The notes: generated by a model not told the origin, from the sequence alone. A stretch of 64,000 nucleotides of DNA from Candidatus Magasanikiibacteriota bacterium (GCA_903893485.1 CAITMK010000012.1:18708-82707), one strand, 5' to 3'. Shown: positions 3,718 to 59,186, numbered from the stretch's first letter. A program made the numbers and translations.

Positions 3718-4434
3718 ATGTCAGGGCATTCAAAATGGTCAACAATTCAAGCATCGAAAGGCGTTGCAGATAAGCGTCGTGCGGTTATTTTTGCAAAATA
3801 CGCGCGGCTAATTGCAATTGCTGCCAAAGAAGGTGGCGGGCCCGATCCTGTGAAAAATTTTAAATTACGCGTTGCGGTCGAAAAGGCGCGCGGCGTGAAC
3901 ATGCCAAAAGAAAACATTGATCGCGCAATCGCCAAAGGCGCGGGCACTGGCGGCGCCGATGATGTCGAGTCAGTTATGTACGATGGTTTAGGGCTTGGAG
4001 GCCGTCTTGCGATTTTAATCGAATGCGCAACAAACAACACAAATCGTTCTGTAGGAAATGTTAAAAATGCGCTGGTAAAGCAAGGCGCCGCAATGGGTGC
4101 ATCGGGCAGCGCAGCATGGATGTTTGATCGCCGCGGCGTGATTCGCGTTGACCAAAAAATTTCAGAAGATCAAGAACTGCAATTAATCGACGATGGCGCG
4201 GTTGATTTTATTGAAGAAGATGGCGGTACAACCATTTATACGCTCACTGAAAAATTTTGGATTGTGATGCAGCGGTTGGCAGAGTGGGGAATCGCAACGC
4301 AATATTCAGAACTTGATTGGGTTCCAAAAAATCCAGAACATTTTACCGAAGAAGAAAACGAAAAAATTCAAAAAATTATTGAAGCATTGGAAAGCACCGA
4401 AGACGTCGAAAGCGTTTACACAAATGCGGGATAA
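3718..4434 (+). CDS. yebC: YebC/PmpR family DNA-binding transcriptional regulator
   Basis: MSGHSKWSTIQ...KRRAVIFAKYARLI...GGGPDPVKNFKLRVAVEKARGVNMPKENIDRAI is the characteristic YebC N-terminus. Start chosen at the MSGHSKW Met. TGgTATTAT lies 6 nt upstream. Confidence 0.85.
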   Translation: MSGHSKWSTIQASKGVADKRRAVIFAKYARLIAIAAKEGGGPDPVKNFKLRVAVEKARGVNMPKENIDRAIAKGAGTGGADDVESVMYDGLGLGGRLAILIECATNNTNRSVGNVKNALVKQGAAMGASGSAAWMFDRRGVIRVDQKISEDQELQLIDDGAVDFIEEDGGTTIYTLTEKFWIVMQRLAEWGIATQYSELDWVPKNPEHFTEEENEKIQKIIEALESTEDVESVYTNAG

Positions 4435-6952: not shown

Positions 6953-7708
6953 ATGGATTTTGAACGGTCTCATCAAATTCGCCTTGCGCTCGAAGCTGCA
7001 TTTGTGGCAGCGCAAGGCAAACCTGTGGCAATGATCGTGGGTATCGGTGACGTCGGCAAGGGTGTTGCGGCAATGATTCGGCGCATGTCGCCCTTGCATC
7101 ATCTAGTCCTGGTGAACCGGGGCGCTCAGCGGCTTGCCGCGGTTCGTCTCGATCTGGATCTCAGCGACACGCCAGGCGGGCCAATCAGCACCATCGAGCT
7201 CGATCCGGGCAACCCGGCCGAACTTGATGTGCTCAAAGGCTGGCTGCAGCAGACGGTGAATCAAATTGATTTACTTGTATTGGCTGCGGGCTGCGCGGTG
7301 CCGGATGAGGGTAGCGAGCCAGCGTACGCGGCGAATCGCCCAAACTGGCAGCTCAAGACCAGCGTCATCGACGCGGTCGCGCAGTACGTCCACCACCTCG
7401 TTGTTGTGGGGTCCATGGTCACGCATTTGCCGGAGGCGGATGTACAGAGCCAGATCGGCTATCGCACGAGCATGCGGGAGCTTGAGACTCGCGTGAGTCA
7501 GCTGCAGGTTTGGATGCGTGGCGAGAATGTCAATCCATTCCTGGCTGAGCACGTGTTCGTCTGGCCGTGCCAGCTCGTCCAGGGCGCGACCGCCGAGAAG
7601 TACAAGGGTCTCGGTTTCGTGCATGAGAGTCAGGAAATTTGGACGCCTCAGGCGCATGCCGAGGCGACGCTCTGGCCTTTCATCCGTGGGTGGTGGCCGC
7701 TGCAGTAA
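6953..7708 (+). CDS. hypothetical NAD(P)-binding Rossmann-fold protein (SDR-like), GC-rich cassette B (251 aa)
   Basis: GGAGG Shine-Dalgarno 6 nt upstream of the ATG at 6953 (the ORF track starts at an in-frame GTG at 6926). Glycine-rich AMIVGIGDVGKGVA motif and an IDLLVLAAG (NNAG-like) segment. ~63% GC. Confidence 0.5.
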   Translation: MDFERSHQIRLALEAAFVAAQGKPVAMIVGIGDVGKGVAAMIRRMSPLHHLVLVNRGAQRLAAVRLDLDLSDTPGGPISTIELDPGNPAELDVLKGWLQQTVNQIDLLVLAAGCAVPDEGSEPAYAANRPNWQLKTSVIDAVAQYVHHLVVVGSMVTHLPEADVQSQIGYRTSMRELETRVSQLQVWMRGENVNPFLAEHVFVWPCQLVQGATAEKYKGLGFVHESQEIWTPQAHAEATLWPFIRGWWPLQ

Positions 7709-7736
7709 CGGACACCCTTTGTGTCCAACGTCCGTA

Positions 7737-7770
7737 TGTTGCCAGTTTGGCAGCGTGCGGCGTTTTTTTA
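7737..7770 (+). terminator. putative terminator closing cassette B
   Basis: Short gcca/tggc stem followed by gcgtgcggcgttttttt (T7). Confidence 0.35.
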
Positions 7771-7788
7771 TGCTACAATAAATCCACT

Positions 7789-8451
7789 ATGACAGAACAA
7801 AAATATGCAGTTGTAACGGGCGGCTCTGAAGGTGTTGGATTTGCCGTGGCGCAAATGCTCGCAGGCCATGGAATGCATGTAATCCTTTTAGCGCGCGACA
7901 AAGAAAAATTAGCTGCAGCTCATACGGCGCTCGGTGGCGGCGAAAATATTTCTGTTTTTAGCGTTGATGTTTCAAACGAGGGTGCGATTGCTGAGGTAAA
8001 AAATTATATCTCCGTTGTGACTGGCCAAATCGATGTATTAGTTAACGCAGCCGGTACGTTTCGTTGGGATCCGTCCGATATTAATTTAATGACACTGAAT
8101 GCTGATAGTAAAGAATTCATACTTCACGCGTTTCACGATTTGATTATTCCAGGAAGTTTTGTAATAAATATTAGTTCGCAAGCAGCGCTATTTGCGCCGG
8201 AAGATCCACGTCGCACGGGTGAAGAAGAATATGTTGCGTCAATGCAGCGCGTCGATGCTTTGTCAGCAGAATTTGCAGCGAAACATCCCGGAGTTCATGT
8301 GCATATTTCTCATCCACCACTGATGCGCGGTAAAATTGCGGAATCACAATTTCGCGGGCGTCCTGGCTTTGAAGATATAAATTTTGATACGCTTCCGGGT
8401 CCAGAAATTGTTGCCGATGAAATTGAAAAAGTCATTTTTGGAACGGTGTGA
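7789..8451 (+). CDS. SDR family short-chain dehydrogenase/reductase
   Basis: MTEQKYAVVTGGSEGVGFAVA is the TGxxxGxG cofactor motif; NAAG region; ~220 aa. Confidence 0.7.
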   Translation: MTEQKYAVVTGGSEGVGFAVAQMLAGHGMHVILLARDKEKLAAAHTALGGGENISVFSVDVSNEGAIAEVKNYISVVTGQIDVLVNAAGTFRWDPSDINLMTLNADSKEFILHAFHDLIIPGSFVINISSQAALFAPEDPRRTGEEEYVASMQRVDALSAEFAAKHPGVHVHISHPPLMRGKIAESQFRGRPGFEDINFDTLPGPEIVADEIEKVIFGTV

Positions 8452-13394: not shown

Positions 13395-14552
13395 TTATTT
13401 GGGACGGGCTTCCGTTTGAGTACCAATGGGTAGAGATGGGGAGGTGATTATTTTTGGTACGTGATTTTGTGTATTTAAAAGAGCGGCATGCACAATTTGA
13501 TCAGAGGCAACATAAAAATTATAAATATTTTTGGGATAATCCGGATTAATTTTTTTCCATCTACTTCCATTGTAAAATGTTGAAAAATTTTCTAGGCTTT
13601 TTTCAGTAAAAGGAAAATCTAGGGCTGGATCATGCGATGATTCCATCGTCTTTTCATATAAATATGCCACAAATAGTTTTACCGCATTTTGTGGGTGATA
13701 CGTTTGTCCCTCGGTAAGTCCTAAATTGCGGCGAGCGCTGATTCCGGGACCTGTCATGAGCACATGAAATATTGAAAATGAGTATTCATGATGGCCGTCA
13801 TGACCCTCCCAGCGAAAGACTTCGCTCGAACCAAGTGGCGCACCACCAGCTTCTTGTTTCGCGATTGCTAAAAGTGAGCGAATAAATAACTCTGGTGACA
13901 TGCCAGGTTGTTCCAATATGTGAGCGATCATCGTTCCATACAATGGATCCGTTTGAAGTTCTGCAAGTGCCGCACTTGCGTAGATGCAAAAATCTTCATC
14001 AGTTATATAACGATCTTTGTTTTCGTGGGGGAGTGGTATCCAAGCGTCTTTTTCAGTTTTAATTAATTCACGCAACTCGGTATCCGGGATATTTATGGAA
14101 ATTGTTTTTGCAAGCTGCTTATTAAAATAGGCAAACTCAGGATATTTCGAAAATTTTTCAATAATTTTTGCTCGTGTATCGCCATGCACTGCATGATAAA
14201 ACAATAACCCCGTATCCTCAAAAATAATTTCACCATTAGGTAATTTCTTAGTTTGGTCAGCGCGCTCTGCCTCGGTGAAATCGCCATTTTTATGAAACAC
14301 AAAAAATGGTGATTCGTCTGGTGAAATTTTACGTAAATTAAATTTTATTTCGTCATTTTCATCTTTGGTTTCACTGACCATGTGTTTTGCACGCACATCT
14401 TCCTTACAGGAGCTTGCGCCCATGAGTATGACAGCTGCACCAAGTGCCGTTCCAATCTTTCCCAAAAGTGCGTTTTGCACGCGATCATATGGTGTATTTG
14501 TGTGCGTCGGTGCTTCTGGCAAACCAGTATGCAGAAATTTATTTTGCTCCAT
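13395..14552 (-). CDS. hypothetical lipoprotein/secreted protein (~385 aa)
   Basis: Hydrophobic N-terminal segment ending in ...ILMGASSCKED. Divergent from the pfkB gene. Confidence 0.5.
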   Translation of the reverse strand: MEQNKFLHTGLPEAPTHTNTPYDRVQNALLGKIGTALGAAVILMGASSCKEDVRAKHMVSETKDENDEIKFNLRKISPDESPFFVFHKNGDFTEAERADQTKKLPNGEIIFEDTGLLFYHAVHGDTRAKIIEKFSKYPEFAYFNKQLAKTISINIPDTELRELIKTEKDAWIPLPHENKDRYITDEDFCIYASAALAELQTDPLYGTMIAHILEQPGMSPELFIRSLLAIAKQEAGGAPLGSSEVFRWEGHDGHHEYSFSIFHVLMTGPGISARRNLGLTEGQTYHPQNAVKLFVAYLYEKTMESSHDPALDFPFTEKSLENFSTFYNGSRWKKINPDYPKNIYNFYVASDQIVHAALLNTQNHVPKIITSPSLPIGTQTEARPK

Positions 14553-14593
14553 ATGCATTAGTATACCCGATTTTCTGATATAATGTCTTCACT

Positions 14594-15569: not shown

Positions 15570-16505
15570 ATGTTAGTAAATTTAAATAAGGTATTACCCG
15601 CGGCGCGAAAAAATAAATATGCAGTTGGTGCATTTAATTTTTCCAATTTGGAATTAGCGCAGGCAATTGTGCAAGCTGCTGATGCGCTTGGTGCCCCAGT
15701 CGTAATTCAAACATCTGAAGGTGCAATTGAATACGGTGGCATGGAATATCTGGCAGCTATTGGGCATGTTGCCGCGCAAATACATGAAAAAATTCCCGTG
15801 GTTTTGCATTTAGATCATGGTCGTGATCCAGCGCTGGTTGAAAAAGCTATTAAGTCGGGTTGGTACACAAGTGTCATGATTGATGTTTCAAATTTGGCGT
15901 ATGCAGAAAATGTTCGCATCACATCACGCATTGTTGAAATGGCACATGAACGTGGCATGAGTGTGGAGTCAGAACTCGGCCCAATTTTGGGAGTTGAAGA
16001 TAAACTGCGCAGCACCGAAGCTGCATTTACCGATCCAAAACAAGTAAAACAATTTATTGCCGACACCAAATGCGACGCACTTGCTATTTCAGTTGGCACG
16101 GCGCATGGACTGATTAAATATCCTCGCGGTGTAACACCAAAAATTGATATTGCGCGCTTGGAAGAAATCGCCGCGATTTCTTCGATTCCGCTTGTGTTGC
16201 ATGGTGCAAGTTGTGTGCCACATGTGTTGCTCGAGCGCATCCACGAAAAATGTGAAACGCTTAATGATTGCAGTCGCGCACACGATGCGGTTGGCGTCCC
16301 CGAAGATCAAATTCAGCGCGCAATTGCAGCTGGTATTTCAAAAATAAATGTTGACTCAGATATTCGTTTGGCATTTACTGGCGCCGTACGCCAAGAGTTA
16401 ATGACCGATACCGATATTACGGACCCGCGCAAATTAATTGGTCCCGGCCGTGATGCAGTACAGCAAATGGTTTCCGACAGAATCAAACTTTTTGGCTGGA
16501 AATAA
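15570..16505 (+). CDS. fba: class II fructose/tagatose-bisphosphate aldolase
   Basis: AVGAFNFSNLE...VVIQTSEGAIEYGG...VLHLDHG; the Zn-binding His cluster is typical of class II aldolases. Confidence 0.8.
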   Translation: MLVNLNKVLPAARKNKYAVGAFNFSNLELAQAIVQAADALGAPVVIQTSEGAIEYGGMEYLAAIGHVAAQIHEKIPVVLHLDHGRDPALVEKAIKSGWYTSVMIDVSNLAYAENVRITSRIVEMAHERGMSVESELGPILGVEDKLRSTEAAFTDPKQVKQFIADTKCDALAISVGTAHGLIKYPRGVTPKIDIARLEEIAAISSIPLVLHGASCVPHVLLERIHEKCETLNDCSRAHDAVGVPEDQIQRAIAAGISKINVDSDIRLAFTGAVRQELMTDTDITDPRKLIGPGRDAVQQMVSDRIKLFGWK

Positions 16506-16510
16506 TTTAA

Positions 16511-16562
16511 ATAAAAAATGCCTCCAGTAACCTTCCGAAATTAAACGGCTGGTTTCTGGAGG
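16511..16562 (-). terminator. intrinsic terminator read on the minus strand, possibly bidirectional for fba
   Basis: cctccag...ctggagg stem followed by T6 on the minus strand. Confidence 0.6.
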
Positions 16563-16992
16563 TCTTGTGACTTGTTAGTCTTTGGTATCGTCAACCTATC
16601 GGCTGAAAATCCCATTAACACCCATTTCCGCTTTGTCAAAGGCGGATTTTCCCCATCTGTTATTATCACCACGGACGCAGCGATCTTTCTGTGGGAGGTG
16701 TGAGGACGCACACCATGCATCTCTGCTTCATTTTTTATTCCGCAGTAAGCGCGGAAAAGGAGTCGTCGGGTATTGTACCCGCTGACTATACCTGGTAACC
16801 CTCCGCTCCCTACTCTCCCTTGGTTGATACGCCAAGGTTTTCAGGTTAAGAAGTTGGGCTTTGGCATCAGCGTAGCGCTGACAAACTGTTGGCCAAGAGC
16901 TGCGGATATGGCGCTCAATCCGGCATTACGCCAGGTAACCCCACTATCGCACGCATGCGCGTGCAGTTAACGGCCCTAAGGCAGGTCAACTT
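16563..16992 (-). ncRNA. candidate ~480-nt structured non-coding RNA of unknown class
   Basis: No ORF >70 aa on either strand. A minus-strand TTGACAAAA-17-TATTTT promoter lies at plus 16999-17027 and the terminator at 16511-16562. Multiple perfect local hairpins (gcacgcgcatgcgtgc, cgggtattgtacccg). GC is elevated relative to flanks. Confidence 0.4.
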
Positions 16993-16998
16993 GTGTAT

Positions 16999-17027
16999 AA
17001 AATATCAAAAGACGGTGATTTTGTCAA
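16999..17027 (-). promoter_or_regulatory. sigma70-like promoter gggggTTGACAAAA-17-TATTTT driving the candidate ncRNA
   Basis: Reverse complement of 16999-17027. Same 'TTGACAAAA' -35 context as the cassette C, E and H promoters. Confidence 0.45.
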
Positions 17028-17044
17028 CCCCCGTCCATAGAAAT

Positions 17045-18028
17045 CTACTTTAAAGCCTTTTTTGTCGCTCTTACAATATCAGCCGCGGTCATCCCGTATT
17101 TTTCTAAAAGTTCTGTTGGAGTTCCGGATTCGCCAAAACAATTTGGCATACCAACCGGCTGAATTGGCACAGGAAATGTGCTGCGTGCACTGCATTCAGC
17201 AATGGCACCAAATAATCCACCACTAATTTGGTGCTCTTCAACGGTTACGGCCGCGCCAGTTTTTTTGAGCGATCCTAAAATAGTTTTTTCATCGAGTGGC
17301 GAGATGGTTGGACAGTTAATTACTTCGGCATCGATATTTTCTTTTTTCAAAAGTTCAGCGGCCTTTAGTGCTTCGTGTAAAAGTGGCCCGCATGCAATGA
17401 TTGAAATATTTTTCCCTGGGCGTACCACATATGCGCGGCCAATTTCAAATTCGGTTTCTGGCGTGGTGATGATTGGTGTTTTTTCGCGCGTTAAACGCAA
17501 ATATACGGGCCCATCATAGGTTGCCGCAGCGCGTGTTGCACGCTCGGCCTCAAGCGCATCGCAGGGAACAAGCACCACCATTCCTGGTAATACGCGCATA
17601 ATCGCAATGTCCTCGAGCGCTTGATGAGTTGCGCCATCAGGGCCAACAGAGATCCCTGCATGGGCGCCAACAATTTTTACATTCAAATTTGAATACGCAA
17701 CTGAAACACGAATTTGATCCCAATTGCGTCCTGGTGAAAATACCGCGTAACTCACGGCAAATGGAATTTTTCCCGTTGTAGCTAAACCAGCTGCAACGCC
17801 TGCCATATTTTGTTCGGACACGCCCATTTCAAAAAAACGATTTGGATATTTTTTTGCAAATGCTTCAACGCGGGTACTTTCAATTAAATCAGCGCAAAGG
17901 GCAACGATATGTTCATTTGCATCGCCAGCTGCAATAAGTCCGGTACCAAAACCGTCGCGCGTTGGTTTTGACGCGACATCGATATCAAAAATTTTTGGAT
18001 TTAGTGCAAACATATTATTGGTGTTCAC
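17045..18028 (-). CDS. transketolase, C-terminal (pyrimidine-binding) subunit
   Basis: Split-transketolase C-terminal half; overlaps the N-terminal subunit gene by 14 nt. Confidence 0.8.
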   Translation of the reverse strand: MNTNNMFALNPKIFDIDVASKPTRDGFGTGLIAAGDANEHIVALCADLIESTRVEAFAKKYPNRFFEMGVSEQNMAGVAAGLATTGKIPFAVSYAVFSPGRNWDQIRVSVAYSNLNVKIVGAHAGISVGPDGATHQALEDIAIMRVLPGMVVLVPCDALEAERATRAAATYDGPVYLRLTREKTPIITTPETEFEIGRAYVVRPGKNISIIACGPLLHEALKAAELLKKENIDAEVINCPTISPLDEKTILGSLKKTGAAVTVEEHQISGGLFGAIAECSARSTFPVPIQPVGMPNCFGESGTPTELLEKYGMTAADIVRATKKALK

Positions 18029-33813: not shown

Positions 33814-34254
33814 CCACATTGACAAAACCCATTTTTTCTGGTGTAATGCGCGGGCTACGAAACCAGGACGAGTGCCCTACGGGGAGGAAAGTCCGGACAC
33901 CCTTTGCGGGGCAACCCGCATCGTCGTGGTGCTGGCTAACGGCCAGGCATTCTGCGGGGTATAAACGACGCGTCGCAAGACGCCCGCGAAAACCTTCTGA
34001 CGGAAAGTGCCACAGAGACAATTAAAGTTTTGACCTCGGTCAATTCCAAAGGTGAAAAGTGAGGTGGTGTACGGGCGCAAGCTCATGCTACACCTCTTTG
34101 CCCGGGCGCGAGTCCGTGGCAGTGGCAAACCCCACCTGGTGCAAGTGCGTATGCACGCATCGAGCGACGTAGTAATACGGCGCCAAGACAGATACTCGTC
34201 ACCGCGCGCCTCAAAACGCACGGGACAAAATCCGGCTTATATGGTTTTGTAGTG
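33814..34254 (+). ncRNA. rnpB: RNase P RNA (bacterial type A-like)
   Basis: Universally conserved P4 segments GGGAGGAAAGTCCGGAC (33883-33899) and ACAAAATCCGGCTTAT near the 3' end. 5'/3' termini can pair as P1 (ccacattgacaaaacccat / atggttttgtagtg). TGtATACC box upstream. Confidence 0.8.
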
Positions 34255-34282
34255 AAATCCGCCTTCGGGCGGATTTTGATTT
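34255..34282 (+). terminator. terminator after rnpB (aaatccgcc-ttcg-ggcggatttt)
   Basis: Perfect 8-bp stem with tetraloop and T-run. Confidence 0.75.
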
Positions 34283-38336: not shown

Positions 38337-40439
38337 TTAGACCTCAATGATTACGGGCAACACCATTGGGCGTCGCTTGGTTTGATTGAACAAGAATTGT
38401 CCAACATCATTGCGGATGCGTGTTTTGATGTATTCATCAAACGCAGGGGATTTGTGATCCGATTCGTCCATGATTTTTTGAACGAGCGCGCGTGTTTTGT
38501 CCAAAATTTCCTGGTTATCTTTGATAAGAATAAACCCACGAGAAATAATGTCCGGTGCGCCGATGAGCGCGCCCGATGATTCTTCGATGGTTGCAATAAC
38601 CACGAGCATACCGTCTTGCGACATTTCCATGCGATCGCGCAGAATTACTTCTGACACATCGCCAACGCCAAGGCCATCAACCATAACATATTCTGCAGGA
38701 TGACGTTCTTCGGTAAGGCGGCCGCCGCTTACATCGAATTGCACGACTTGGCCGTTATCGGCAATGAAAATATTTTCTTTTTCAACACCAACCGCTGCAG
38801 CAAGACGGCCGTGAGCCGCAAGCATAAAGCGGTTGCCATGAATTGGCATGAAATGTTTTGGCTTGGTAAGGCGCAACATTAATTTGAGATCTTCTTGTTT
38901 TGCGTGACCGCCGGCGTGCACATCCATGTGCACCGAATGCACCACGTTTGCACCATGGCGAACCAACGTGTCTTTGAGGCGTTGAACACTGCGTTCATTA
39001 CCTGGAACAACTGATGAAGAGAAAATCACGGTGTCATTGTCTTCCAATTTAAGGAAACGATGTTCGCCGGTTGCAATGCGCATGAGCGCCGCTTTTTCTT
39101 CGCCTTGTGCGCCAGTACACAAAATAAGTAAGTTTTCTGGGCGATATTTGTTGTAATCGTTTTCATCGATGATGGTGCCTGGTTTGAACTGCAAGTAGCC
39201 AAGTTCATGAGCAAGATCAACGTTTTTTTGCATTGAACGACCCTGAATTAAAACCTTGCGGCCATACTTTTCGGCAAGCGCCAAAATGATTTGCACGCGA
39301 GTTAAAAGGGAAGAGAAAGTACCAACAATAATGCGGCTTTCTGCGTTGCCGATTACGCGATCAAGTTCGTTATACACAACTTGTTCTGAAATTTGGTGAC
39401 CTGGAATGTCTGCGGCGGTTGAATCTGACAAAAGTGCCAAAACACCTTTTGAGCCATACATTGCAATGCGGCCAAGATCTGCTGGCTCTTCGTTCACTGG
39501 GGTGAAATCGAATTTGAAGTCACCGGTAATAAGAACTGGGCCAAATGGTGTGTGAATTGCAACACCAAACGCATCGGAAATGGTGTGGTTAATGTGGAAC
39601 GGTTCAAAGATAAAGTTTTTACCCAAATGAAAACGTTCGTCGGCGTGCTGCACAATTACCATGTTTAATTTTGGCAAATGTGGATATTCTTCGTGGCGTG
39701 CGCGAACGATACCGGCGGTTAATGGCGCGGTATAAATTGGCGGATTGCCAATTTTTGGGAGCACGTGTGAAATTGCACCAACGTGGTCCAAATGGCCGTG
39801 AGTGATAATGACACCGCGAATATTTTTTTCGCGACCCTTAAAGGTTGCAACATTTGGAATAATGTAGTCGATGCCTGGCATGCCTTCTTCGGGGAACATA
39901 AGGCCGACGTCAACGATAATAATATCGTCGCCGCATTCCAAAACGGTACAGTTGCGGCCAATTTCTTCCAAGCCGCCAAGTGCGTAAATTTTAAGTTTCA
40001 AATCTGAGTCTGCGGTTGGGGCAACGAGTGGTTCAAAATAAACCGCTTCACGGTCGCCACGTTGAACATCATAACCCGCTGGAATTGGGGTGTTGAAATC
40101 TGGAGCGTTGCGTGGGCGCATAACGCCAGCTGCTGCATGAAATGCTGAACGTTTTTGGATAATTGGTAAGCCTCCAACGCGTGCGGTTGGACCGCTTTGC
40201 TGCTGATTGCCATAAGCTGGGCGTGAAGCAGCACCGCCACGCATAGGTGGGCGGTTTGAACGCTGAAACGGTGGGCGTCCACCAATCATTGGAGGGCGAC
40301 CATCGGGGCGCGCTGGTGTGGCAGGCATGCCTGAATTATTGAAGCGGCGAGGGCCACCCATAGGTGGACGTCCCTGGTTTGGGCCACGACGAAGTGGCGG
40401 CGGTGCCATGTTTGGCGACGCTGATACTGGATCTGTCAT
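38337..40439 (-). CDS. rnj: ribonuclease J (beta-CASP metallo-beta-lactamase RNase) with ~180-aa Arg/Gly/Pro-rich N-terminal extension
   Basis: HGHLDHVGA zinc motif, beta-CASP and C-terminal domains. N-terminus is rich in RPPMGGPRR / GGRPPF repeats. Confidence 0.8.
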   Translation of the reverse strand: MTDPVSASPNMAPPPLRRGPNQGRPPMGGPRRFNNSGMPATPARPDGRPPMIGGRPPFQRSNRPPMRGGAASRPAYGNQQQSGPTARVGGLPIIQKRSAFHAAAGVMRPRNAPDFNTPIPAGYDVQRGDREAVYFEPLVAPTADSDLKLKIYALGGLEEIGRNCTVLECGDDIIIVDVGLMFPEEGMPGIDYIIPNVATFKGREKNIRGVIITHGHLDHVGAISHVLPKIGNPPIYTAPLTAGIVRARHEEYPHLPKLNMVIVQHADERFHLGKNFIFEPFHINHTISDAFGVAIHTPFGPVLITGDFKFDFTPVNEEPADLGRIAMYGSKGVLALLSDSTAADIPGHQISEQVVYNELDRVIGNAESRIIVGTFSSLLTRVQIILALAEKYGRKVLIQGRSMQKNVDLAHELGYLQFKPGTIIDENDYNKYRPENLLILCTGAQGEEKAALMRIATGEHRFLKLEDNDTVIFSSSVVPGNERSVQRLKDTLVRHGANVVHSVHMDVHAGGHAKQEDLKLMLRLTKPKHFMPIHGNRFMLAAHGRLAAAVGVEKENIFIADNGQVVQFDVSGGRLTEERHPAEYVMVDGLGVGDVSEVILRDRMEMSQDGMLVVIATIEESSGALIGAPDIISRGFILIKDNQEILDKTRALVQKIMDESDHKSPAFDEYIKTRIRNDVGQFLFNQTKRRPMVLPVIIEV

Positions 40440-40816
40440 AGGAGTGTTAAATTGATTTCTTTCTCTTTTCGTGGACACGCGTCGCATTCTCCTGCGAGAA
40501 TGCGCGCTCGGCCCCGGTTCGCCAGTTTTGCTTCGCAAAACACCATGCTGGCTCACCTGCGGATGGTCCACTAAAACAGAAAGAAATCGATTTTAGTGAG
40601 TATGAGTGATTAAATTTTTGAAATAGTGCTGAACTGGTCAAGTAAAAAAGGTGTGTCGCAAGGTTTATAAAAATCTATTGTGAGGGACCATCCGCAGCCT
40701 GAGCGGGCCGGAGTTTTGGCACGTAGGGCCAAAACGAGCGAGGGCGAGGCTGAGTGCAAATTCCCGCCGGGGAATTTGCCACGTGTCCTGAACATTAGAT
40801 TTTTATAAACCGGCTT
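40440..40816 (-). promoter_or_regulatory. long structured leader/spacer between tRNA-Leu and rnj, with interleaved inverted repeats
   Basis: IR1 ggtttataaaaatct / agatttttataaacc and IR2 ctgcggatggtcc / ggaccatccgcag are arranged 1a-2a-1b-2b. Several perfect local hairpins are also present. Confidence 0.4.
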
Positions 40817-40903
40817 TGGTGCCGCGGGCGGGACTTGAACCCGCACACTCTTGCGAGCGCTAGCACCTGAAGCTAGTGTGTCTGCCAATTTCACCACCGC
40901 GGC
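40817..40903 (-). tRNA. tRNA-Leu (anticodon CAG), long variable arm
   Basis: Acceptor GCCGCGG/CCGCGGC, anticodon stem CTAGC/GCTAG with loop TTCAGGT, T-arm GCGGGTTCAAGTCCCGC, encoded CCA. Confidence 0.8.
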
Positions 40904-40967
40904 AGGGAGTGGATAGGAAACAAAAGTAGACCAAACTATAGCATACCAAGGTCGGATTTGTCAATTA

Positions 40968-42683
40968 TCACTTCTTAACCTGTTTGGTCGAAATAAACCA
41001 ACTGGTGATATTTTGAAAACGTTCGTCAGCGTTAACACCTGGGGGAACCGTAACGCCTTGGACTTTTTGGGCCACAAAATATTCGTATACTGGTTGGTAC
41101 AAAAATATAGCTGGGGTATCGGCAACAATGCGGTTCGAAATTTTCTTTAATAAAGTGGCGCGTGTGGCGGGGGCGGGCTCAGAAAGTAATGATTGGAGCC
41201 ATGCGTCAACTTCGCTCATTTGGTAACGCGCATAGTTTACGCCATCATCGGCGCTGCCCGTGGAATTCCAGTAAGGATAGGCGCTATTTGGCGTTTCGTA
41301 GGATTGGCCAGCAAGTAGCATATCCTGAGTGGCTGCGTCTTGTGGCGCATTTTCTAAATCAACGGTGCGTGTGGCAACGGGCAATCCAATTGCTTTTAAA
41401 TTTTCAACAATTTGATTCGCTGCATTTACAAGCGCAGCTGAACTTGGAACGCCCAAAGACAGCGGCGTTGTGGGTAGTTTAACATTAGCTTTTTTTAGCA
41501 GCGCCAACGCATTGGCGGTGTTCATATCCGGAAGTGCTGCTAAGTCGCCACCAATAATTGAAGCCGGAAAAGGTTCACGCGCTGGCACACCATTACTTTT
41601 TAAAGCATTTTTAACAATTGCGGTGCGATCGATGGCAAGTGCAATTGCATCGCGCAAATCCGGGTTTTTAAATAATGGATTTTTTGATGGATTGAAAAAT
41701 AAACTTACAACGGTTGGTGGCGTAATTTCGTAGCGTTTTACGTCGTGCTTAAAAATGGTGTCATCAGCGCTTGGATCGAAAGCGGTAAATGCGTCCACGG
41801 TGCGACTGCGAAATAAATCCGCGGCAGTATCAGCGTCGGGCGCAAAACGAAACGTAAGCTCTTCAATGTACGCCGGTTTTGGTTTGAAATCCGAAAACAC
41901 ATCAAACGTCATGCTTTGTAAAAAGCCACCCGCATCCGCAGTTGCGCTTTCGAATTGAAACGGTCCAGATCCAACGGGTTTAAGATTTAATGAATCGGTT
42001 CGCATGTGCGTTGGGTCAACATTTTTCCAAATATGTTCTGGGATGATGCCTACATGCAAAAGCGCAGGTAAATCTGGCATGCTATGCGCGACTGAAATTT
42101 GTACGGTACCATCGGCAGCGGCAACCGCGGTAATTTTTTGCGCCGCGGGCTGCCATGGGCTGCCAACCGCGGTGTTTTGCATTGCTTGAATGGTAAATAA
42201 AACATCTTGCGCCGTAATTGCAGCACCATCGTGCCATTCATGATCGCCAAGCGTAATAGTTGCGCGCGTTAAGGTGCTATTAAATTTGCACGTTGCAAGC
42301 GCAGGGCCAGCATCGGCGCACAAAGGCAAAAATAAAACGTTGGTGAGCGACAGGTCAATGTCTGTTGCGGCAAAAAGAGGATTAATATTTTGCGGCTCGC
42401 CAACGAGCGCTTCTTTAAAAGTGCCGCCAGTGGTTGGCACCGTAACCATATTAAATCGTTGAAATGACCAAAAAAGGCCAATCACTGAAATAATGGCAAG
42501 TGCTGATGCGCCGGAAAAAACTAGTCGCTCCCATTTGCTGAGAAACATGTCCAAATGGGCAAGCTGTTGGCGCGAAGGGAAAAATTTTTCATGGCGCGCA
42601 TGAAAAACAGAGCGGTCAAGACGCGTCATACGCTGCCGCACAAAGGTATCGTAAATTCGTCGTCCTTCTGAAAGAAGGCTCAT
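40968..42683 (-). CDS. ABC transporter substrate-binding protein, family 5 (Opp/Dpp-like), membrane-anchored
   Basis: N-terminal TM anchor LVFSGASALAIISVIGLFW followed by an SBP_bac_5-like domain. Start uncertain (42716, 42683 or 42629). Confidence 0.55.
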   Translation of the reverse strand: MSLLSEGRRIYDTFVRQRMTRLDRSVFHARHEKFFPSRQQLAHLDMFLSKWERLVFSGASALAIISVIGLFWSFQRFNMVTVPTTGGTFKEALVGEPQNINPLFAATDIDLSLTNVLFLPLCADAGPALATCKFNSTLTRATITLGDHEWHDGAAITAQDVLFTIQAMQNTAVGSPWQPAAQKITAVAAADGTVQISVAHSMPDLPALLHVGIIPEHIWKNVDPTHMRTDSLNLKPVGSGPFQFESATADAGGFLQSMTFDVFSDFKPKPAYIEELTFRFAPDADTAADLFRSRTVDAFTAFDPSADDTIFKHDVKRYEITPPTVVSLFFNPSKNPLFKNPDLRDAIALAIDRTAIVKNALKSNGVPAREPFPASIIGGDLAALPDMNTANALALLKKANVKLPTTPLSLGVPSSAALVNAANQIVENLKAIGLPVATRTVDLENAPQDAATQDMLLAGQSYETPNSAYPYWNSTGSADDGVNYARYQMSEVDAWLQSLLSEPAPATRATLLKKISNRIVADTPAIFLYQPVYEYFVAQKVQGVTVPPGVNADERFQNITSWFISTKQVKK

Positions 42684-51002: not shown

Positions 51003-51752
51003 ATGATTTGGGATCCGATCACTCTAAAACAAGAAGATGAGCTGCGCGCTGCGACAAACAGCTGTCTAGCTGCAAATAAAAAAACGCCAACGATTGCATT
51101 GCGCGTTGCAGGAGTAGACATTGTCCTATTTGCGATATTTCTTTTTTGGGCTCACACAAGTACACTCACCTCTGATGTAATTTGGGATATAAGCATTTTT
51201 TTATTATTTATCCCCATCATGTGTTTGGCTGCTTGGGTGCAATCAAATGATAATGTGACTTTTATGACCGTGCGTCTTGCCCACGGTTGGGATGTCATCA
51301 CCAATCCAGATAAACAGCGATTCCGTGATTTAAATGCTAAATATAATTTTTTGATACCACGTGATACTCTAAAAAGAGGTGAGGGGGCTTACGTATGCCG
51401 TAATGAAATTTGGGGTAAGGCATCGCAAACAAGTTTCTTTTCGTGCCAAATTGATTATGCATGCGGTGGTAACAGAATCACAGCTGCTGAATCTCGACAA
51501 TTACTTTTTGTAAAATTACCTGCGCCACAAAAATCAATAAAAACAGATGGTGATTTTGACATTTCAATCCTGAGTTCTGCAGCTCAGGCGGCATGGAATG
51601 ATTTGACTGCACAATGTGGTAAGACCAAATTTATTATTGAAAATGACCTTGCGGCAATTAGCACGTTAACGGGATTCCTAAAGTTAGGGACACCGGAAAA
51701 AATTGAAGAAGTGTGTGTTAAAATTTTGGCATTAGCTGCTGCGCTTGTATAA
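51003..51752 (+). CDS. hypothetical membrane protein (249 aa)
   Basis: TGTATACTG box 9 nt upstream of the ATG. Two TM segments near the N-terminus. Confidence 0.5.
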   Translation: MIWDPITLKQEDELRAATNSCLAANKKTPTIALRVAGVDIVLFAIFLFWAHTSTLTSDVIWDISIFLLFIPIMCLAAWVQSNDNVTFMTVRLAHGWDVITNPDKQRFRDLNAKYNFLIPRDTLKRGEGAYVCRNEIWGKASQTSFFSCQIDYACGGNRITAAESRQLLFVKLPAPQKSIKTDGDFDISILSSAAQAAWNDLTAQCGKTKFIIENDLAAISTLTGFLKLGTPEKIEEVCVKILALAAALV

Positions 51753-51763
51753 AGATCTGATTC

Positions 51764-51800
51764 AAAAAAGCCTTGGTGAAAACCAAGGCTTTTGCTTTTG
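51764..51800. terminator. bidirectional terminator agccttgg-tgaaaa-ccaaggc
   Basis: Perfect stem between convergent genes with flanking A/T runs. Confidence 0.7.
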
Positions 51801-51820
51801 AAATGTTCTCTTATTGCGGA

Positions 51821-54193
51821 CTAAAATTTATACATTGAAATCTTAGCCACATTAATAAGTCCTTTCATAAAGTCTGACTTATACTGCTGAAGCGTTTTAA
51901 TTGCGCGCGCAATTTCAAGTGGATCATTTTTTTGAACAGGCGCTTCGGTCATAGTTACTTTGTCATCTTTCACTTTGGTAACAATTTGATTTCCCGCAAC
52001 GCCGATGTAAGTCGAAGACTTGAAATCAATTGCGTATTGCAATGGATCGCCGCCAGCAAGCGGAAGAATTACTAAAGAATCTGGTTGACTAATCTTAAAG
52101 ACTAAACGGGCACCATCAAATGAAAGCAGCTCTCGCTCAGAATGCTTTTGAAGAATTGGCGGTAATGGAATTTCAGTGGTTACGAAATTTTTTAGGTCAA
52201 CTTGTGCATAGGTATTGCCATCACTCATGACTGCGGTATCCCCATATAGTTTAATTGTTCTGATCTGTCCGTAAAAAGGGTACCCCAGTTCTTTGCCCGT
52301 ATTCATGTCGAGCACATGCAGCGCCGGTGCGTTTGTGGTGGTATCAAAAAGTGCCCACGCAATATAATGAGAACCGCCCACCACTGTTGTCAGCATTTGA
52401 TTTTCTCCTACATTATCCGATTGTAGCTGCTTAACGAGCTTACCGGTTTTTGTATTCCAAGCGCTATATGCCGTAATGCCACTTTTTGAATGAGTTTCTA
52501 ATATTAATGATTGATATTCGGCATGCACGGTAAAGCTTAAAAGATCTGCCATGTTGGCTGCGGTGATTTTTTGTACGACCGTATCTTTTTTTGTGGCAAA
52601 ATCGTACCAATGTACCTCGCCGGTTGTTATTTTTTTAGCGGTTACCACACGAAACCATGCGAGGCCGGTTGGACCAACACTCCAAGGTTTCGTGGAATTA
52701 AGTTGCGGCATCCCGATTGTTGGAATTGTAAAATTCTTACCGGTACTTATTTTATGTACAATGATTGATTGAGTGGAAGTTACTCCGCCAAAGGCATTCG
52801 CTATGAGCGCGCCACCTGCACTAGCGACTGTCCCCATTAGTTTATTAAAAACATCGGGATGGGTTTTCAAGTAATCATTTGCGGCCGCTTGAGTTTTAAT
52901 ACTTTTTGGAACCGTTGCACTAAGTTTTTGTAAGCCGCTGGTAAGCGTATTAAAAAACTTTGTAGTATCTTTTGCCGAGACCAGTGGTACGTTTGCAGCG
53001 ATCACATCATTGGCTACATCAAAATCCCCGTACTCTGCGATTGTCCCTTTGGGACCTGGTGGAACAGTCCACAATGAAACAGGTAAACTTGAAGCCCCGG
53101 GAATATCGCTGGTCTGCTGAAGTTTTTGTAGCGTCGCATCATCAATGCTGTTGTCACATTGAATCGTTTTGTATCGAAGGCCATTTGAGTCTGCCCAATA
53201 GATATATGGACCGGTTAGAACCGCATGACTTGCATTTTCAATGCCATCAGCCTTAGTAAAATTTGTAGGACAAGACATCTGCGTTGACTCGTTGAAGAAA
53301 TTATATACAGAACCTTGTTTCCATAGCAGGCCAGAATCACCTGAAAGAAAATATGAAGCTTTCGCGTCATTAATTACAACAGGAGCAATGGTTTTGGTAT
53401 CCATGGCGACTCGGTAATAACCATTATTCAAGTACAATGGATTTTCGACGTAGAATGATGACTTATCTGCCATGGATAAGAATTTTAAAACACCCTCTGT
53501 CTGTATGAATGCCGTATAATCAATTGTGGTCGCTGCGGTATCGACAAATCGGCGAAATACGATTGTGTGATTATTTATATCGCTCGCTGCGATATAATCA
53601 GGCCCGATAACAAAATTTGTATTGCCCGCTTGATCTACCACGTCAACATCAGGATCTTGTAGAAAATCAGCAACACTTTGCGTCTTATTTTGCGCAACAT
53701 CAAGGACTTCATACGTTTGGGTGTCCGTACTATAGACTGCAAACTTTCCATCTACGGATGCAGCAACCTCACCCAAAAGAGTATCTGATGATTTTGCGAT
53801 AAGTTGCGAGACTTTTTTACTTGTAAAATCGTATTGATATATGCCGGATGTTGCATCTTTGCTTCCCCAAATGACGGTGTTGTTTGTAATCGCTGCGTTT
53901 GAGAGCTCGTATAGCGGATCTGAAATTGGCGCAAAACTACCGGTGCCTACATCGGTCATCATGAGTTGGCCATCTGGATGAGTTGAAACAAATGGGGATT
54001 GGCCGCTAGGACTTGTGAACCAAACAACATGTGAACCAAATGCAGCCCAATCGTTTGCAGGGTCCTGTTGAAATCCACTTTGCGTTCCGTAGCCAGCAAC
54101 CGGAGTTGCAGTAGTTGCGGCAATTGCGGATGCCGTTGGCAATAATAATGAAATAACGGTGAAGAGCGAAACGAAAGAGCTTTTTTTAAACAT
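51821..54193 (-). CDS. hypothetical large secreted protein (790 aa)
   Basis: Signal peptide MFKKSSFVSLFTVISLLLPTASAIAA. Repetitive beta-rich composition. Confidence 0.5.
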   Translation of the reverse strand: MFKKSSFVSLFTVISLLLPTASAIAATTATPVAGYGTQSGFQQDPANDWAAFGSHVVWFTSPSGQSPFVSTHPDGQLMMTDVGTGSFAPISDPLYELSNAAITNNTVIWGSKDATSGIYQYDFTSKKVSQLIAKSSDTLLGEVAASVDGKFAVYSTDTQTYEVLDVAQNKTQSVADFLQDPDVDVVDQAGNTNFVIGPDYIAASDINNHTIVFRRFVDTAATTIDYTAFIQTEGVLKFLSMADKSSFYVENPLYLNNGYYRVAMDTKTIAPVVINDAKASYFLSGDSGLLWKQGSVYNFFNESTQMSCPTNFTKADGIENASHAVLTGPYIYWADSNGLRYKTIQCDNSIDDATLQKLQQTSDIPGASSLPVSLWTVPPGPKGTIAEYGDFDVANDVIAANVPLVSAKDTTKFFNTLTSGLQKLSATVPKSIKTQAAANDYLKTHPDVFNKLMGTVASAGGALIANAFGGVTSTQSIIVHKISTGKNFTIPTIGMPQLNSTKPWSVGPTGLAWFRVVTAKKITTGEVHWYDFATKKDTVVQKITAANMADLLSFTVHAEYQSLILETHSKSGITAYSAWNTKTGKLVKQLQSDNVGENQMLTTVVGGSHYIAWALFDTTTNAPALHVLDMNTGKELGYPFYGQIRTIKLYGDTAVMSDGNTYAQVDLKNFVTTEIPLPPILQKHSERELLSFDGARLVFKISQPDSLVILPLAGGDPLQYAIDFKSSTYIGVAGNQIVTKVKDDKVTMTEAPVQKNDPLEIARAIKTLQQYKSDFMKGLINVAKISMYKF

Positions 54194-57273: not shown

Positions 57274-58179
57274 ATGCAGAATTTGTCTTTTAAAAAACAA
57301 GGACGCCAATATCATATTTTTTTGAATGATACCGAAATTGCGGTTGCACCAGAATTTGTATTTCCAGATTCAGAAGCAGCTGACCCCACAATTGAATTGC
57401 AATCAAATCAAGAAGGTTTTGTTGTGGGCAATGAGGCGATTTACCTAATTGAGCCAAAAGCAACGGTGACGTTTTTGTACAATGGCGTTCCCGCAGCGCA
57501 CATGCCGCTTTCGCAGTTTATGATGCCGGGAAATTATACGTTTTCAGATGCGGGGCATCATTCTGCCGCGATTGAAAAAGGTTTTGATAAATTATTGGAT
57601 CGAATGTATGCGCTCGCGGAGCGCGCCGGCGCAGATCCTTCGGTGGTTGAACTTTTTGATGCAGAGACGGGGCCGGTTGATTTACAAAACGCTGCCGAAG
57701 AGATCGGGCAGCGAATGTTGGTTGCTGAAAAAGATGAAGCGCTGAAAAATAAAATTACGCAGGCTTTTGCAAAATTAGGTAAAATTAAATTTTTGCCAAA
57801 ATCGTTAGGCATGGATCAAACGCAGGACAATCGTGAAATTATAAATCGCTATGCTGAGACGTTTAAAATATTTCGAGAAATAAAAGAAGATTCTGCTGCA
57901 GAAGCGGTAAAAGCATATCCACATAAAAATGAACTGTACGTTATTTTTGAACGCGCGCCAGAACTGCTGGAAACGCATGTGCGTGTAGCTGTCGCCGAAA
58001 ATTACAAAGAGTATCGACACCAAGAAGAATTGCTTACAGGAATTGATTTGGCAGCACTTAAAGAAATTAGAGCGGATCAAAAGGGAATGGCCACCGCAGA
58101 AAAAACGGAATTACTTAGGGGTGCAACGGAGCCTCAGAAGGTGAATGAAATTGAGGCGTCCCTTGGTTCAAGAAAGTGA
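57274..58179 (+). CDS. hypothetical protein (301 aa)
   Basis: TGgTATACT box 14 nt upstream; divergent from cca. Confidence 0.45.
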   Translation: MQNLSFKKQGRQYHIFLNDTEIAVAPEFVFPDSEAADPTIELQSNQEGFVVGNEAIYLIEPKATVTFLYNGVPAAHMPLSQFMMPGNYTFSDAGHHSAAIEKGFDKLLDRMYALAERAGADPSVVELFDAETGPVDLQNAAEEIGQRMLVAEKDEALKNKITQAFAKLGKIKFLPKSLGMDQTQDNREIINRYAETFKIFREIKEDSAAEAVKAYPHKNELYVIFERAPELLETHVRVAVAENYKEYRHQEELLTGIDLAALKEIRADQKGMATAEKTELLRGATEPQKVNEIEASLGSRK

Positions 58180-58336
58180 TCTTGAAGGTTTGAGGGGTAA
58201 CGTGGTAAAGTGCAGGCGTTCAAAAACGTATTCTCTTCGGGCCGTAGATACTTCGCGCACGTTGTGCGCTCGTCGCTACTGGCCCTCCAGTCGAAGACAA
58301 CTTCAAATGCACGCATTTGAATTGTCGTCTCCTTAC

Positions 58337-58410
58337 GGGCCAGTAGCTCAGTTGGTGAGAGCACGGTGCTTATAACGCCGGGGTCCTGGGTTCGAGTCCC
58401 AGCTGGCCTA
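58337..58410 (+). tRNA. tRNA-Ile (anticodon UAU)
   Basis: Acceptor GGGCCAG/CTGGCCT (G1·U72), D-arm GCTCAGTTGGTGAGAGC, anticodon stem CGGTG/CGCCG with loop CTTATAA, T-arm CTGGGTTCGAGTCCCAG. CCA not encoded. Confidence 0.7.
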
Positions 58411-58412
58411 TA

Positions 58413-58446
58413 TAAAAATACCACCCATTTGGGTGGTATTTTTATA
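58413..58446. terminator. bidirectional terminator aaaataccaccc-attt-gggtggtatttt
   Basis: Perfect 8-bp stem flanked by A- and T-runs. Confidence 0.8.
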
Positions 58447-58514
58447 TTTGTTTAAGGCTGGGATTCGAAGGGTTGTCGCGCCTCCGCGCGAAGCGAATCC
58501 CAGCAACCACAAAA

Positions 58515-59186
58515 TTATTTAACCCCTCTAACTACAAACGATTGCAACAGCTGCTCAAACATCATTTGGGTTGCCGTATCATCGGATCCAGAATAATTTT
58601 CTGTAATCAGAATCGCGTGATCTTTATTTGGAGTGATATAAACGCTCACACGTGCGCCATAGATATCATCTGTATTGTATCGAATACCAGGGGCCGCTAC
58701 ATCGAGATTGGATTTTATCGTTGGCGCCACTTCAGATTTACCCGTCATTAAATTGTACGATGAAATATCTGAATTTTTTTGGGCCCATGTAAGTGCATCG
58801 TACGCATCCGGATTGCCATATACGGTAAACGTTATAAATGGCGGAGGAGTTTCACCTTCAAAAACGCCAAGCAGTGTTTCGTATGTTTTTTCTGGATATA
58901 CAGTCATGCCGGTTTCGTAATGATTCTTTTTGTAGTTTTCGTCAAAGGATTGCGCAGCTGCAACAAGTCCTTGCGGCATTAAAAAATATCCGGAAAGCCC
59001 CAAACCAATTTTAGTAGGCTGCGGCGCTGGCACCGGTGCAATATTTGAAGGCCCTGGCTGTACAATAGTTGAAGGTGGTACCGCAACAGGCTCGGCAACT
59101 GGTCGAACGGGTTGAGCTAAATCTGGCGCACACCCAGCACCCGCAAGTATTAATACCAGAGGAATCGCAAAATAGGAAAGTTTCAT
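58515..59186 (-). CDS. hypothetical lipoprotein (223 aa)
   Basis: Signal plus lipobox LILAGAGC, then a Pro-rich linker. Confidence 0.5.
   Translation of the reverse strand: MKLSYFAIPLVLILAGAGCAPDLAQPVRPVAEPVAVPPSTIVQPGPSNIAPVPAPQPTKIGLGLSGYFLMPQGLVAAAQSFDENYKKNHYETGMTVYPEKTYETLLGVFEGETPPPFITFTVYGNPDAYDALTWAQKNSDISSYNLMTGKSEVAPTIKSNLDVAAPGIRYNTDDIYGARVSVYITPNKDHAILITENYSGSDDTATQMMFEQLLQSFVVRGVK

Follow-up and report, generated by a model that had tools for sequence, protein, structure and literature searches.

In the 64-kb window, the whole stretch of DNA that was analysed (64,000 nt), the convergent genes for a class-II fructose-bisphosphate aldolase (fba) and for the C-terminal transketolase subunit (tktC) leave between their stop codons a gap of 539 nt (16506-17044), the largest noncoding stretch of this tightly packed sequence with the exception of RNase P (Table 1). 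The host is a Magasanikbacteria-like bacterium of the Patescibacteria (CPR); its TktC has its best GTDB match, at 70% identity, in a Candidatus Magasanikbacteria MAG. Same-strain contigs have the same sequence throughout the region, with no SNPs and hence no population signal. Among 17 neighbouring ORFs in the 8.4-25 kb interval, all compared with Pfam and two with NCBIfam as well, 14 match housekeeping families and three were unmatched; genes for a transposase, a reverse transcriptase or a Nop/Tas protein were not found among them. A 387-aa ORF on the minus strand (13395-14558), which has a signal sequence resembling that of lipoproteins and matches nothing in Pfam or NCBIfam, constitutes a second lineage-specific insertion nearby; the syntenic relative L086 has a 73-aa ORF in its place.

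The initial annotation had seen no credible ORF in the gap, and this assessment holds: the longest ORFs reach 59-67 aa (including one of 59 aa at 16541-16720), none of them matches Pfam, and a tblastx comparison with the homologous insert of the nearest relative found no reading frame conserved between the two inserts. The transcription signals of the gap lie on the minus strand. A sigma-70-type promoter with 10/12 matches and an extended TG at its -10 box predicts a transcription start near 16992. The pattern TTGACA-N16-18-TAnnnT occurs six times in 64 kb (1.7 expected), and five of the six sites lie between genes and point towards a gene downstream of them, in one case a tRNA gene; judged by sequence pattern, a minus-strand promoter at this place is credible for this genome. 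At the other end, just before fba, lies a strong intrinsic terminator, whose hairpin (-23 kcal/mol, z -5.9; stem CCUCCAG-A-AACC..CCG[UUUAAUUU]CGG..GGUU-A-CUGGAGG) is followed on the minus strand by CAUUUUUUAUUU; read on the plus strand, the same hairpin lies 3' of fba with a weak U-tract. Promoter and terminator had both been called previously and were found again where they had been placed. The earlier account had missed a second, upstream hairpin (GGACGG-G-GGUU[GACAA]AAUC-A-CCGUCU, then a U-tract), which overlaps the -35 box of the RNA promoter and terminates the tkt operon; since the operon has this separate terminator, the predicted RNA looks like a transcription unit of its own and not like a 3' UTR. 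The features by which stand-alone ncRNA genes are generically recognized, an own promoter and an intrinsic terminator on one strand and no coding potential, occur together in this gap. As a side observation, the -35-like sequence TTGAC recurs on the RNA strand at 17027, 16989, 16639 and 16594; these four copies in 540 nt, where ~0.5 would be expected, were counted post hoc.

Table 1. Predicted features of the fba-tktC gap and its flanking genes (window coordinates), and protein genes in the corresponding slot of related loci (coordinates of each locus).
Feature	Position	Strand	Remarks
fba (class-II fructose-bisphosphate aldolase)	15570-16505	+	pfkB kinase gene precedes
tktC (C-terminal transketolase subunit)	17045-18028	-	final gene of rpiB-rpe-trxB-tktN-tktC string
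tkt-operon intrinsic terminator hairpin	17010-17036	-	-12.7 kcal/mol, z -3.0; UUUUGAUAUUUU at 16998-17009
Sigma-70-type promoter	16999-17027	-	-35 TTGACA 17027-17022, 17-nt spacer, -10 TATTTT 17004-16999
Predicted noncoding transcript, ~480 nt	16511-16992	-	body + terminator
5' hairpin AGUUGAC..GUUAACU	16965-16991	-	pair probabilities 0.97-1.00 across both 5' hairpins
5' hairpin GCACGC-GCAU-GCGUGC	16949-16964	-	as above
GGTTACCWGG motif copy 1, GGTTACCTGG	16931-16940	-	
Central hairpin run, perfect stems	16767-16882	-	
Central hairpin UCAGCG-CUA-CGCUGA	16867-16881	-	
Central hairpin CCUUGG-N8-CCAAGG	16818-16837	-	
GGTTACCWGG motif copy 2, GGTTACCAGG	16791-16800	-	
Central hairpin CGGGUA-CAA-UACCCG	16767-16781	-	
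Hairpin g, UUCCGC-GCUUACU-GCGGAAU	16737-16756	-	-8.6 kcal/mol, z -3.1; then A-rich AUGAAGC
Hairpin GGUGUG-CGUCCU-CACACC	16697-16714	-	in perfect-hairpin count
Hairpin j, UCCGC-C-UUU-GAC-AAA-GCGGA	16627-16646	-	AGAUG precedes at 16654-16658
Intrinsic terminator of predicted RNA	16511-16562	-	hairpin 16521-16562, then U-tract CAUUUUUUAU
Degenerate third motif copy, GGTTACTGG	16524-16532	-	inside RNA terminator
Slot protein gene, L140	3486-4031	-	
Slot protein gene, L150	3458-3904	-	
Slot protein gene, L154	2147-2710	-	
Slot protein gene, L159	1325-1876	-	
Slot protein gene, L001	~3958-4390	-	

Composition and folding of the gap

Several perfect hairpins, a GC content above that of the flanks and repeated GGTTACC(T/A)GG elements had been noticed in the initial annotation, and all three observations were borne out quantitatively. 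Perfect hairpins of at least 6 bp with loops of 3-8 nt number six in 430 nt, a count not exceeded in any of 296 windows of the 64 kb, where 0.5 +/- 0.7 are expected (none of 1000 dinucleotide shuffles reached six); the GC content is 51% in the core versus 46% in the window; and the only two exact copies of GGTTACCWGG in 64 kb both fall in the gap, this motif being absent from the relative's insert. The predicted fold is a string of short local hairpins with neither a long rod nor a rod-plus-bubble shape, and it is more stable on the minus strand (z -5.6) than on the plus strand (z -3.5); high-probability helices that need G-U pairs, for example AUCGCUGC/GUGGUGAU, form on the minus strand only. 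All of the perfect hairpins, on the other hand, consist of Watson-Crick pairs and would form in DNA or on the opposite strand too, which counts against the reading as ncRNA. When folding energy is corrected for GC content, the region ranks 9th of 532 windows, a high but not extreme position. Values at least equal to that of the gap were found in the windows 58081-58800, 40321-41040, 6961-7920 and 51361-52080, two of which hold tRNA genes; 6961-7920 lies inside ORFs and has an unusually high GC content (0.55-0.60). The sequence UCCGC and its complement GCGGA each occur three times in the gap RNA, so that alternative pairings are possible, an observation made post hoc.

Known RNA families were not recovered. 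Rfam 15 (4227 models) gave no match in the gap at gathering thresholds, and with relaxed filters (E<=10) it returned only sub-threshold, miRNA-like chance matches; ARAGORN found no tRNA or tmRNA between 16000 and 17500. The scan that had been proposed together with the initial annotation thus yields no known family, and the earlier view that the region does not fit tmRNA, SRP, 6S or RNase P stands. A tmRNA was rejected on the ARAGORN result and on the lack of any match to the Rfam tmRNA families even at E<=10; RNase P, SRP and 6S RNA on the negative Rfam scans and on a fold of local hairpins instead of a rod, the RNase P of the window lying at 33856-34255 with a score of 125 bits. OLE, ROOL, GOLLD, HEARO and raiA RNAs were not matched by their Rfam 15 models, and group I and group II introns left no Intron_gpI, Intron_gpII or group-II-D1D4 match at E<=10. 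A riboswitch, T-box or other leader was discarded because what follows on the minus strand is the 3' end of convergent fba, and a CRISPR array because direct repeats with regular spacing are absent. A TIGR array was rejected as well: the 17 neighbouring ORFs include no Nop-domain gene, repeats are limited to short two-copy matches, and the loops measure 3-8 nt and do not form dual-spacer units. Literature searches on the hairpin sequence and on CPR ncRNAs found nothing relevant.

Relatives of the locus

The pfkB-fba / tktC-tktN synteny is kept across relatives, but relatives differ in what the slot between fba and tktC contains. In four lineages the slot is reduced to 0-12 nt or to overlapping stop regions; in five others it holds a conserved gene for a protein of 148-187 aa on the fba strand, opposite to the predicted RNA (Table 1). 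This protein is uncharacterised and without a Pfam or NCBIfam family, and carries the motifs RYDxIDDLP, KYKCKT, WVPTTRDEI and TLDAL; its gene, which does not occur in this window, shows translational coupling to the end of fba and shares an overlap with the end of tktC. A noncoding insert was found only in the host and in its nearest sampled relative (77% identity in TktC, 70% in FBA), and BLASTN and nhmmer searches of 80 GTDB tktC loci returned no homologue of the gap element. The cassette is absent from most relatives, and is therefore accessory and dispensable, which counts against the ncRNA reading. Downstream of tktC, more distant relatives appear to have other small RNA genes with TTGAC-type promoters (L002 2909-3350; L009 3896-4450; L026 3961-4400; L028 3961-4760); by eye, L009 and L026 share a sequence resembling a tRNA-Leu(UAA) gene, L028 contains a tRNA-like and L002 an SRP RNA-like sequence, and the DNA downstream of tktC seems to be a site where RNA genes often land.

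The relative's insert was joined from the ends of a tktC contig (L084) and an fba contig (L096) of the same run, which overlap by an exact 21 nt and give a 578-nt composite spanning both stop codons, with 572 nt between them. This insert has stops in all frames, and its orientation and its layout of promoter, body and terminator are those of the gap: a promoter TTGACA-17-TATAGT occupies the same place on the tkt side, the tkt terminator hairpin with its T-run overlaps the perfect TTGACA, and a strong terminator follows at the fba side on the strand of the promoter. Its GC content is 56%, versus 48% in its flanks, and the excess over the flanks amounts to 5-9 points in both inserts. The insert folds with z -2.8 (its 5' half alone with z -0.45), and the excess of perfect hairpins is not seen in it, which again counts against the ncRNA reading. 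In the TktC tree, the sister lineage of this relative is wholly without the insert, by a clean deletion; on this distribution the cassette would have been either lost once or gained twice. That it was kept at full length in two lineages whose TktC sequences differ by 23%, while the sister lineage deleted it cleanly, argues for selective retention.

In primary sequence, the two inserts have diverged almost completely. Global, local and generalised-affine alignments give 43-47% identity, which is the random level; the local alignment score lies within shuffles, and k-mers common to the gap and to the first half of the relative's insert occur at chance level only. Two collinear blocks, the hairpins g and j, are shared nevertheless. 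Hairpin g has the consensus UUCCG(C/U)-loop-GCGGAAU followed by AUG(A/G)AGC in both inserts and its distance from the -35 box is 284 nt in the host versus 278 nt in the relative; a search of 732 kb of CPR loci found its pattern in these two inserts only, and 99 matches in viral contigs were at chance level, none of them resembling the gap RNA. The apical 12-mer of hairpin j, CCTTTGACAAAG (RNA CCUUUGACAAAG), is identical in both inserts and unique to them in the 732 kb of CPR DNA; an outer complementary pair, GAAAAUCC (16644-16651) and GGAUUUUC (16605-16612), flanks the hairpin. In the lower stem of hairpin j, four of the eight pairs have changed on both sides and all eight remain paired (n=2 sequences). 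The chance that g and j occur collinearly in a 578-nt sequence is of the order of 1e-5, as estimated from pattern frequencies, and the two inserts are accordingly treated as homologous.

The covariation analysis against homologous intergenic regions that had been suggested earlier could use one such region (n=1), and its outcome is divided: compensation in four of eight pairs of hairpin j and a conserved stem in hairpin g support pairing, and the remainder is unalignable. Since the inserts are at random level outside these two hairpins of ~20 nt, covariation lends no statistical support to the overall fold; selection is treated as visible only on hairpins g and j, the promoter and the terminator.

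Hairpin j was also used to scan metagenomes, with the pattern AGATG-N3-10-SSS-CCTTTGACAAAG-SSS. None of the 43 loci recovered is a further CPR homologue: ~20 are chance matches in coding DNA, and another ~20 belong to a different, abundant palindromic repeat of ~95 nt with poly-C/poly-G stems (AAATCCCCC..CCCCCTTTGTCAAAGGGGG..GGGGGATTT), which occurs in multiple copies on non-CPR metagenome contigs of 44-63% GC. We found this repeat neither in Rfam nor in the literature; conservation of AGATG does not extend across the repeat family as a whole. Units written AAATCCCCCC-N-CCCCCCTTTGTCAAAGGGGGG ... GGGGGGATTT were noted in L101 (6226-6320, 6593-6686, 6940-7003), L134 (4852-4990) and L104 (6399-6492), and the repeat is also present in L098, L116, L117, L121, L132 and L136; in one contig group it sits inside a conserved noncoding region of ~250 nt. 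The repeat and hairpin j have the same apex, C-TTTGACAAA-G, and loosely similar outer arms (AAAATCC/GGATTTT); in contrast to hairpin j, the repeat has homopolymer stems and consists of multi-copy units outside the CPR, whereas the CPR inserts have stems of mixed GC content and contain a single hairpin module within a 480-nt unit. The likeness extends over ~13 nt, was partly imposed by the search pattern, and is an unexplained resemblance, not membership. The pair GGGTTACCWGG..GGGTTACCWGG was dropped as a search motif, as it matches collagen-like Gly-X-Y repeats in viral contigs.

Function of the insert and alternative readings

The retained cassette of promoter and terminator, the GC elevation, the minus-strand-specific structure, the compensated hairpin j and the conserved hairpin g argue for function. 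The reading that we favour, and to which we would give about even chances, is that the gap encodes a lineage-restricted, independently transcribed, hairpin-rich ncRNA of ~480 nt that belongs to a new family and acts via its conserved hairpins. Transcription of the tkt operon would end at its own terminator (17010-17036), and the overlapping sigma-70 promoter would start a new minus-strand transcript near 16992, which the strong intrinsic terminator would stop at ~16511, just before convergent fba. The RNA would fold as a series of short, stable local hairpins, of which UUCCG..CGGAAU and C-UUUGACAAA-G may be the ones that a protein or another RNA recognizes; the remainder would be a fast-evolving, GC-rich scaffold that serves mainly for stability. 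Such an RNA could act in trans, as a small RNP or as a sequestering RNA, and in the host and its sister lineage the cassette would fill the slot that elsewhere belongs to a conserved small protein gene. That the RNA is transcribed and stable, and that it acts in this way, we infer. No gene for a partner protein was found within ~8 kb on either side of the gap, which counts against the ncRNA reading. A more ambitious version, that the element together with its one homologue founds a new family of ~0.5-kb structured RNAs in a Magasanikbacteria-related clade, that it replaced the protein gene between the tkt operon of the pentose-phosphate pathway and the glycolytic pfkB-fba operon, and that its two hairpins recruit a partner, is put forward tentatively.

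A non-functional origin is the strongest competitor, although we regard it as rather unlikely: the insert could be relic or insulator DNA, a leftover of the slot gene or foreign DNA, tolerated because two terminators separate the tkt and pfkB-fba transcripts, with any RNA being incidental. The five lineages with a slot gene of 148-187 aa lend this idea substance, since insert lengths of 539 and 572 nt are near the length of that gene, and the plus strand just past fba starts with ATG-CCT-CCA-G, recalling the MAPP start of the slot gene; this is the sole hint of such an ancestry. The patchy presence among close relatives and the divergence of the two inserts to random level beyond two short blocks point in the same direction. 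Yet a pseudogene of the slot protein was not detected by a profile HMM (built on four homologues) in any of the 12 frames of both inserts, despite the strongly conserved motifs of the family, and tblastn with single proteins gave noise only. Both inserts are richer in GC than their genomes, unlike the slot gene, which has no GC enrichment. The -35 box, the 17-nt spacer, the -10 box and a strong terminator are kept in both inserts on the strand opposite the former gene, and the protein-bearing relatives have neither promoter nor terminator on the tkt strand, which also led us to reject an antisense transcript of the slot gene; the inserts are thus recognisable neither as decayed copies of the slot gene nor as its antisense derivatives. 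Two compact genomes would, moreover, probably not have kept ~550 nt of neutral DNA over this divergence, given that a clean deletion is viable, and the compensated hairpin j indicates selection for pairing.

It is improbable that the insert is what remains of a small, non-autonomous mobile element or of a palindromic repeat cluster (MITE, REP, PATE-like) that came to rest past the tkt terminator. Its insertion-like, variable presence and its many short palindromes would suit such an origin, and the core of hairpin j with its AAAATCC..GGATTTT flanks recalls the poly-C/poly-G element, within the limits of that likeness given above. MITE and IS-derived elements (PATE, REP cluster) were nonetheless rejected: the insert has no terminal inverted repeats, no convincing target-site duplication and no second copy in the 64-kb window, and the neighbouring ORFs include none of the mobility-related genes looked for. 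BLAST searches of phages and plasmids and of viral contigs gave no match, and an exact 18-mer from the gap had zero matches in viral contigs. The two inserts share their locus and their orientation, and each has a promoter and a terminator, which fits vertical descent better than repeated insertion.

Very improbable is the reading in which the gap encodes one or more very small proteins, such as the 21-aa peptide MKQRCMVCVLTPPTERSLRPW after GCGGAAU-A6 or the 59-aa ORF, and the hairpins are an mRNA leader or trailer. Small ORFs are present, and in both inserts an AUG follows a GGA-containing hairpin (GCGGAAU..AUG(A/G)AGC); the peptides that start at this common AUG are, however, unrelated between the inserts, tblastx detects no conserved frame, and Pfam matches and a good Shine-Dalgarno sequence are lacking. 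The least probable of all is a divergent member of a known RNA class (6S/Ms1-like, tmRNA, SRP, intron, or a guide-RNA array such as TIGR), an idea that draws on the divergence of CPR housekeeping RNAs (RNase P reaches only 125 bits here) and on the occurrence of TIGR arrays with variable palindromes and a final terminator in CPR bacteria (PMC12045711), and that conflicts with the negative Rfam (E<=10, relaxed filters) and ARAGORN results, with a fold that has no rod-plus-bubble shape, repeat unit or periodicity, and with loops of 3-8 nt, as opposed to guide units of ~40 nt, in a neighbourhood free of Nop/Tas genes within ~8 kb.

The hairpin-rich ncRNA thus remains our preferred reading, and the insert is a well-delimited, statistically unusual candidate ncRNA that rests on one homologue. 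CPR bacteria (Patescibacteria) are uncultivated episymbionts with minimal genomes and almost no spare DNA, and beyond housekeeping RNAs hardly any RNA has, to our knowledge, been described from them. If the reading is correct, an RNA gene of 0.5 kb would provide a rare handle on RNA regulation or RNP biology in these episymbionts; its position, where relatives carry a conserved protein gene, adds to its interest.

Comparison with known systems

TIGR arrays are found in CPR bacteria as stem-loop arrays of variable palindromes with a terminator at the end (PMC12045711). The gap resembles them in its CPR host, in its array of variable palindromic sequences and in its final rho-independent terminator; it differs in that TIGR arrays consist of dual-spacer box C/D units accompanied by a Tas gene with a Nop domain, whereas the gap has loops of 3-8 nt, no repeated unit and no Tas gene within ~8 kb. 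The large bacterial RNAs OLE, ROOL, GOLLD, HEARO and raiA share with the gap a length of ~200-800 nt, a stand-alone transcription unit and many helices. In contrast to these RNAs, the gap has no Rfam match and no conserved multi-helix core, its sequence being unalignable at 77% TktC identity, and its fold consists of simple hairpins without GNRA loops or long-range architecture. The proposal of a large structured ncRNA, as the initial annotation had phrased it, is sustained in part: above-chance structure, promoter, terminator, noncoding character and a positional homologue of the same layout are in its favour, and a large structure in the sense of OLE or GOLLD is not established, since conservation is confined to two short hairpins in an otherwise unalignable sequence.

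The closest parallel may be the orphan ncRNA candidates that surveys of GC-rich intergenic regions (GC-IGR) have reportedly found in AT-biased bacterial genomes. Acceptance of such a candidate requires many homologues as well as covariation. The gap is like them in its length and GC enrichment, its own promoter and terminator, its lack of an ORF and its above-chance folding; unlike the accepted ones, it has one homologue and two conserved hairpins. Placed among these systems, the gap element is an unclassified candidate of the kind "stand-alone bacterial ncRNA gene".
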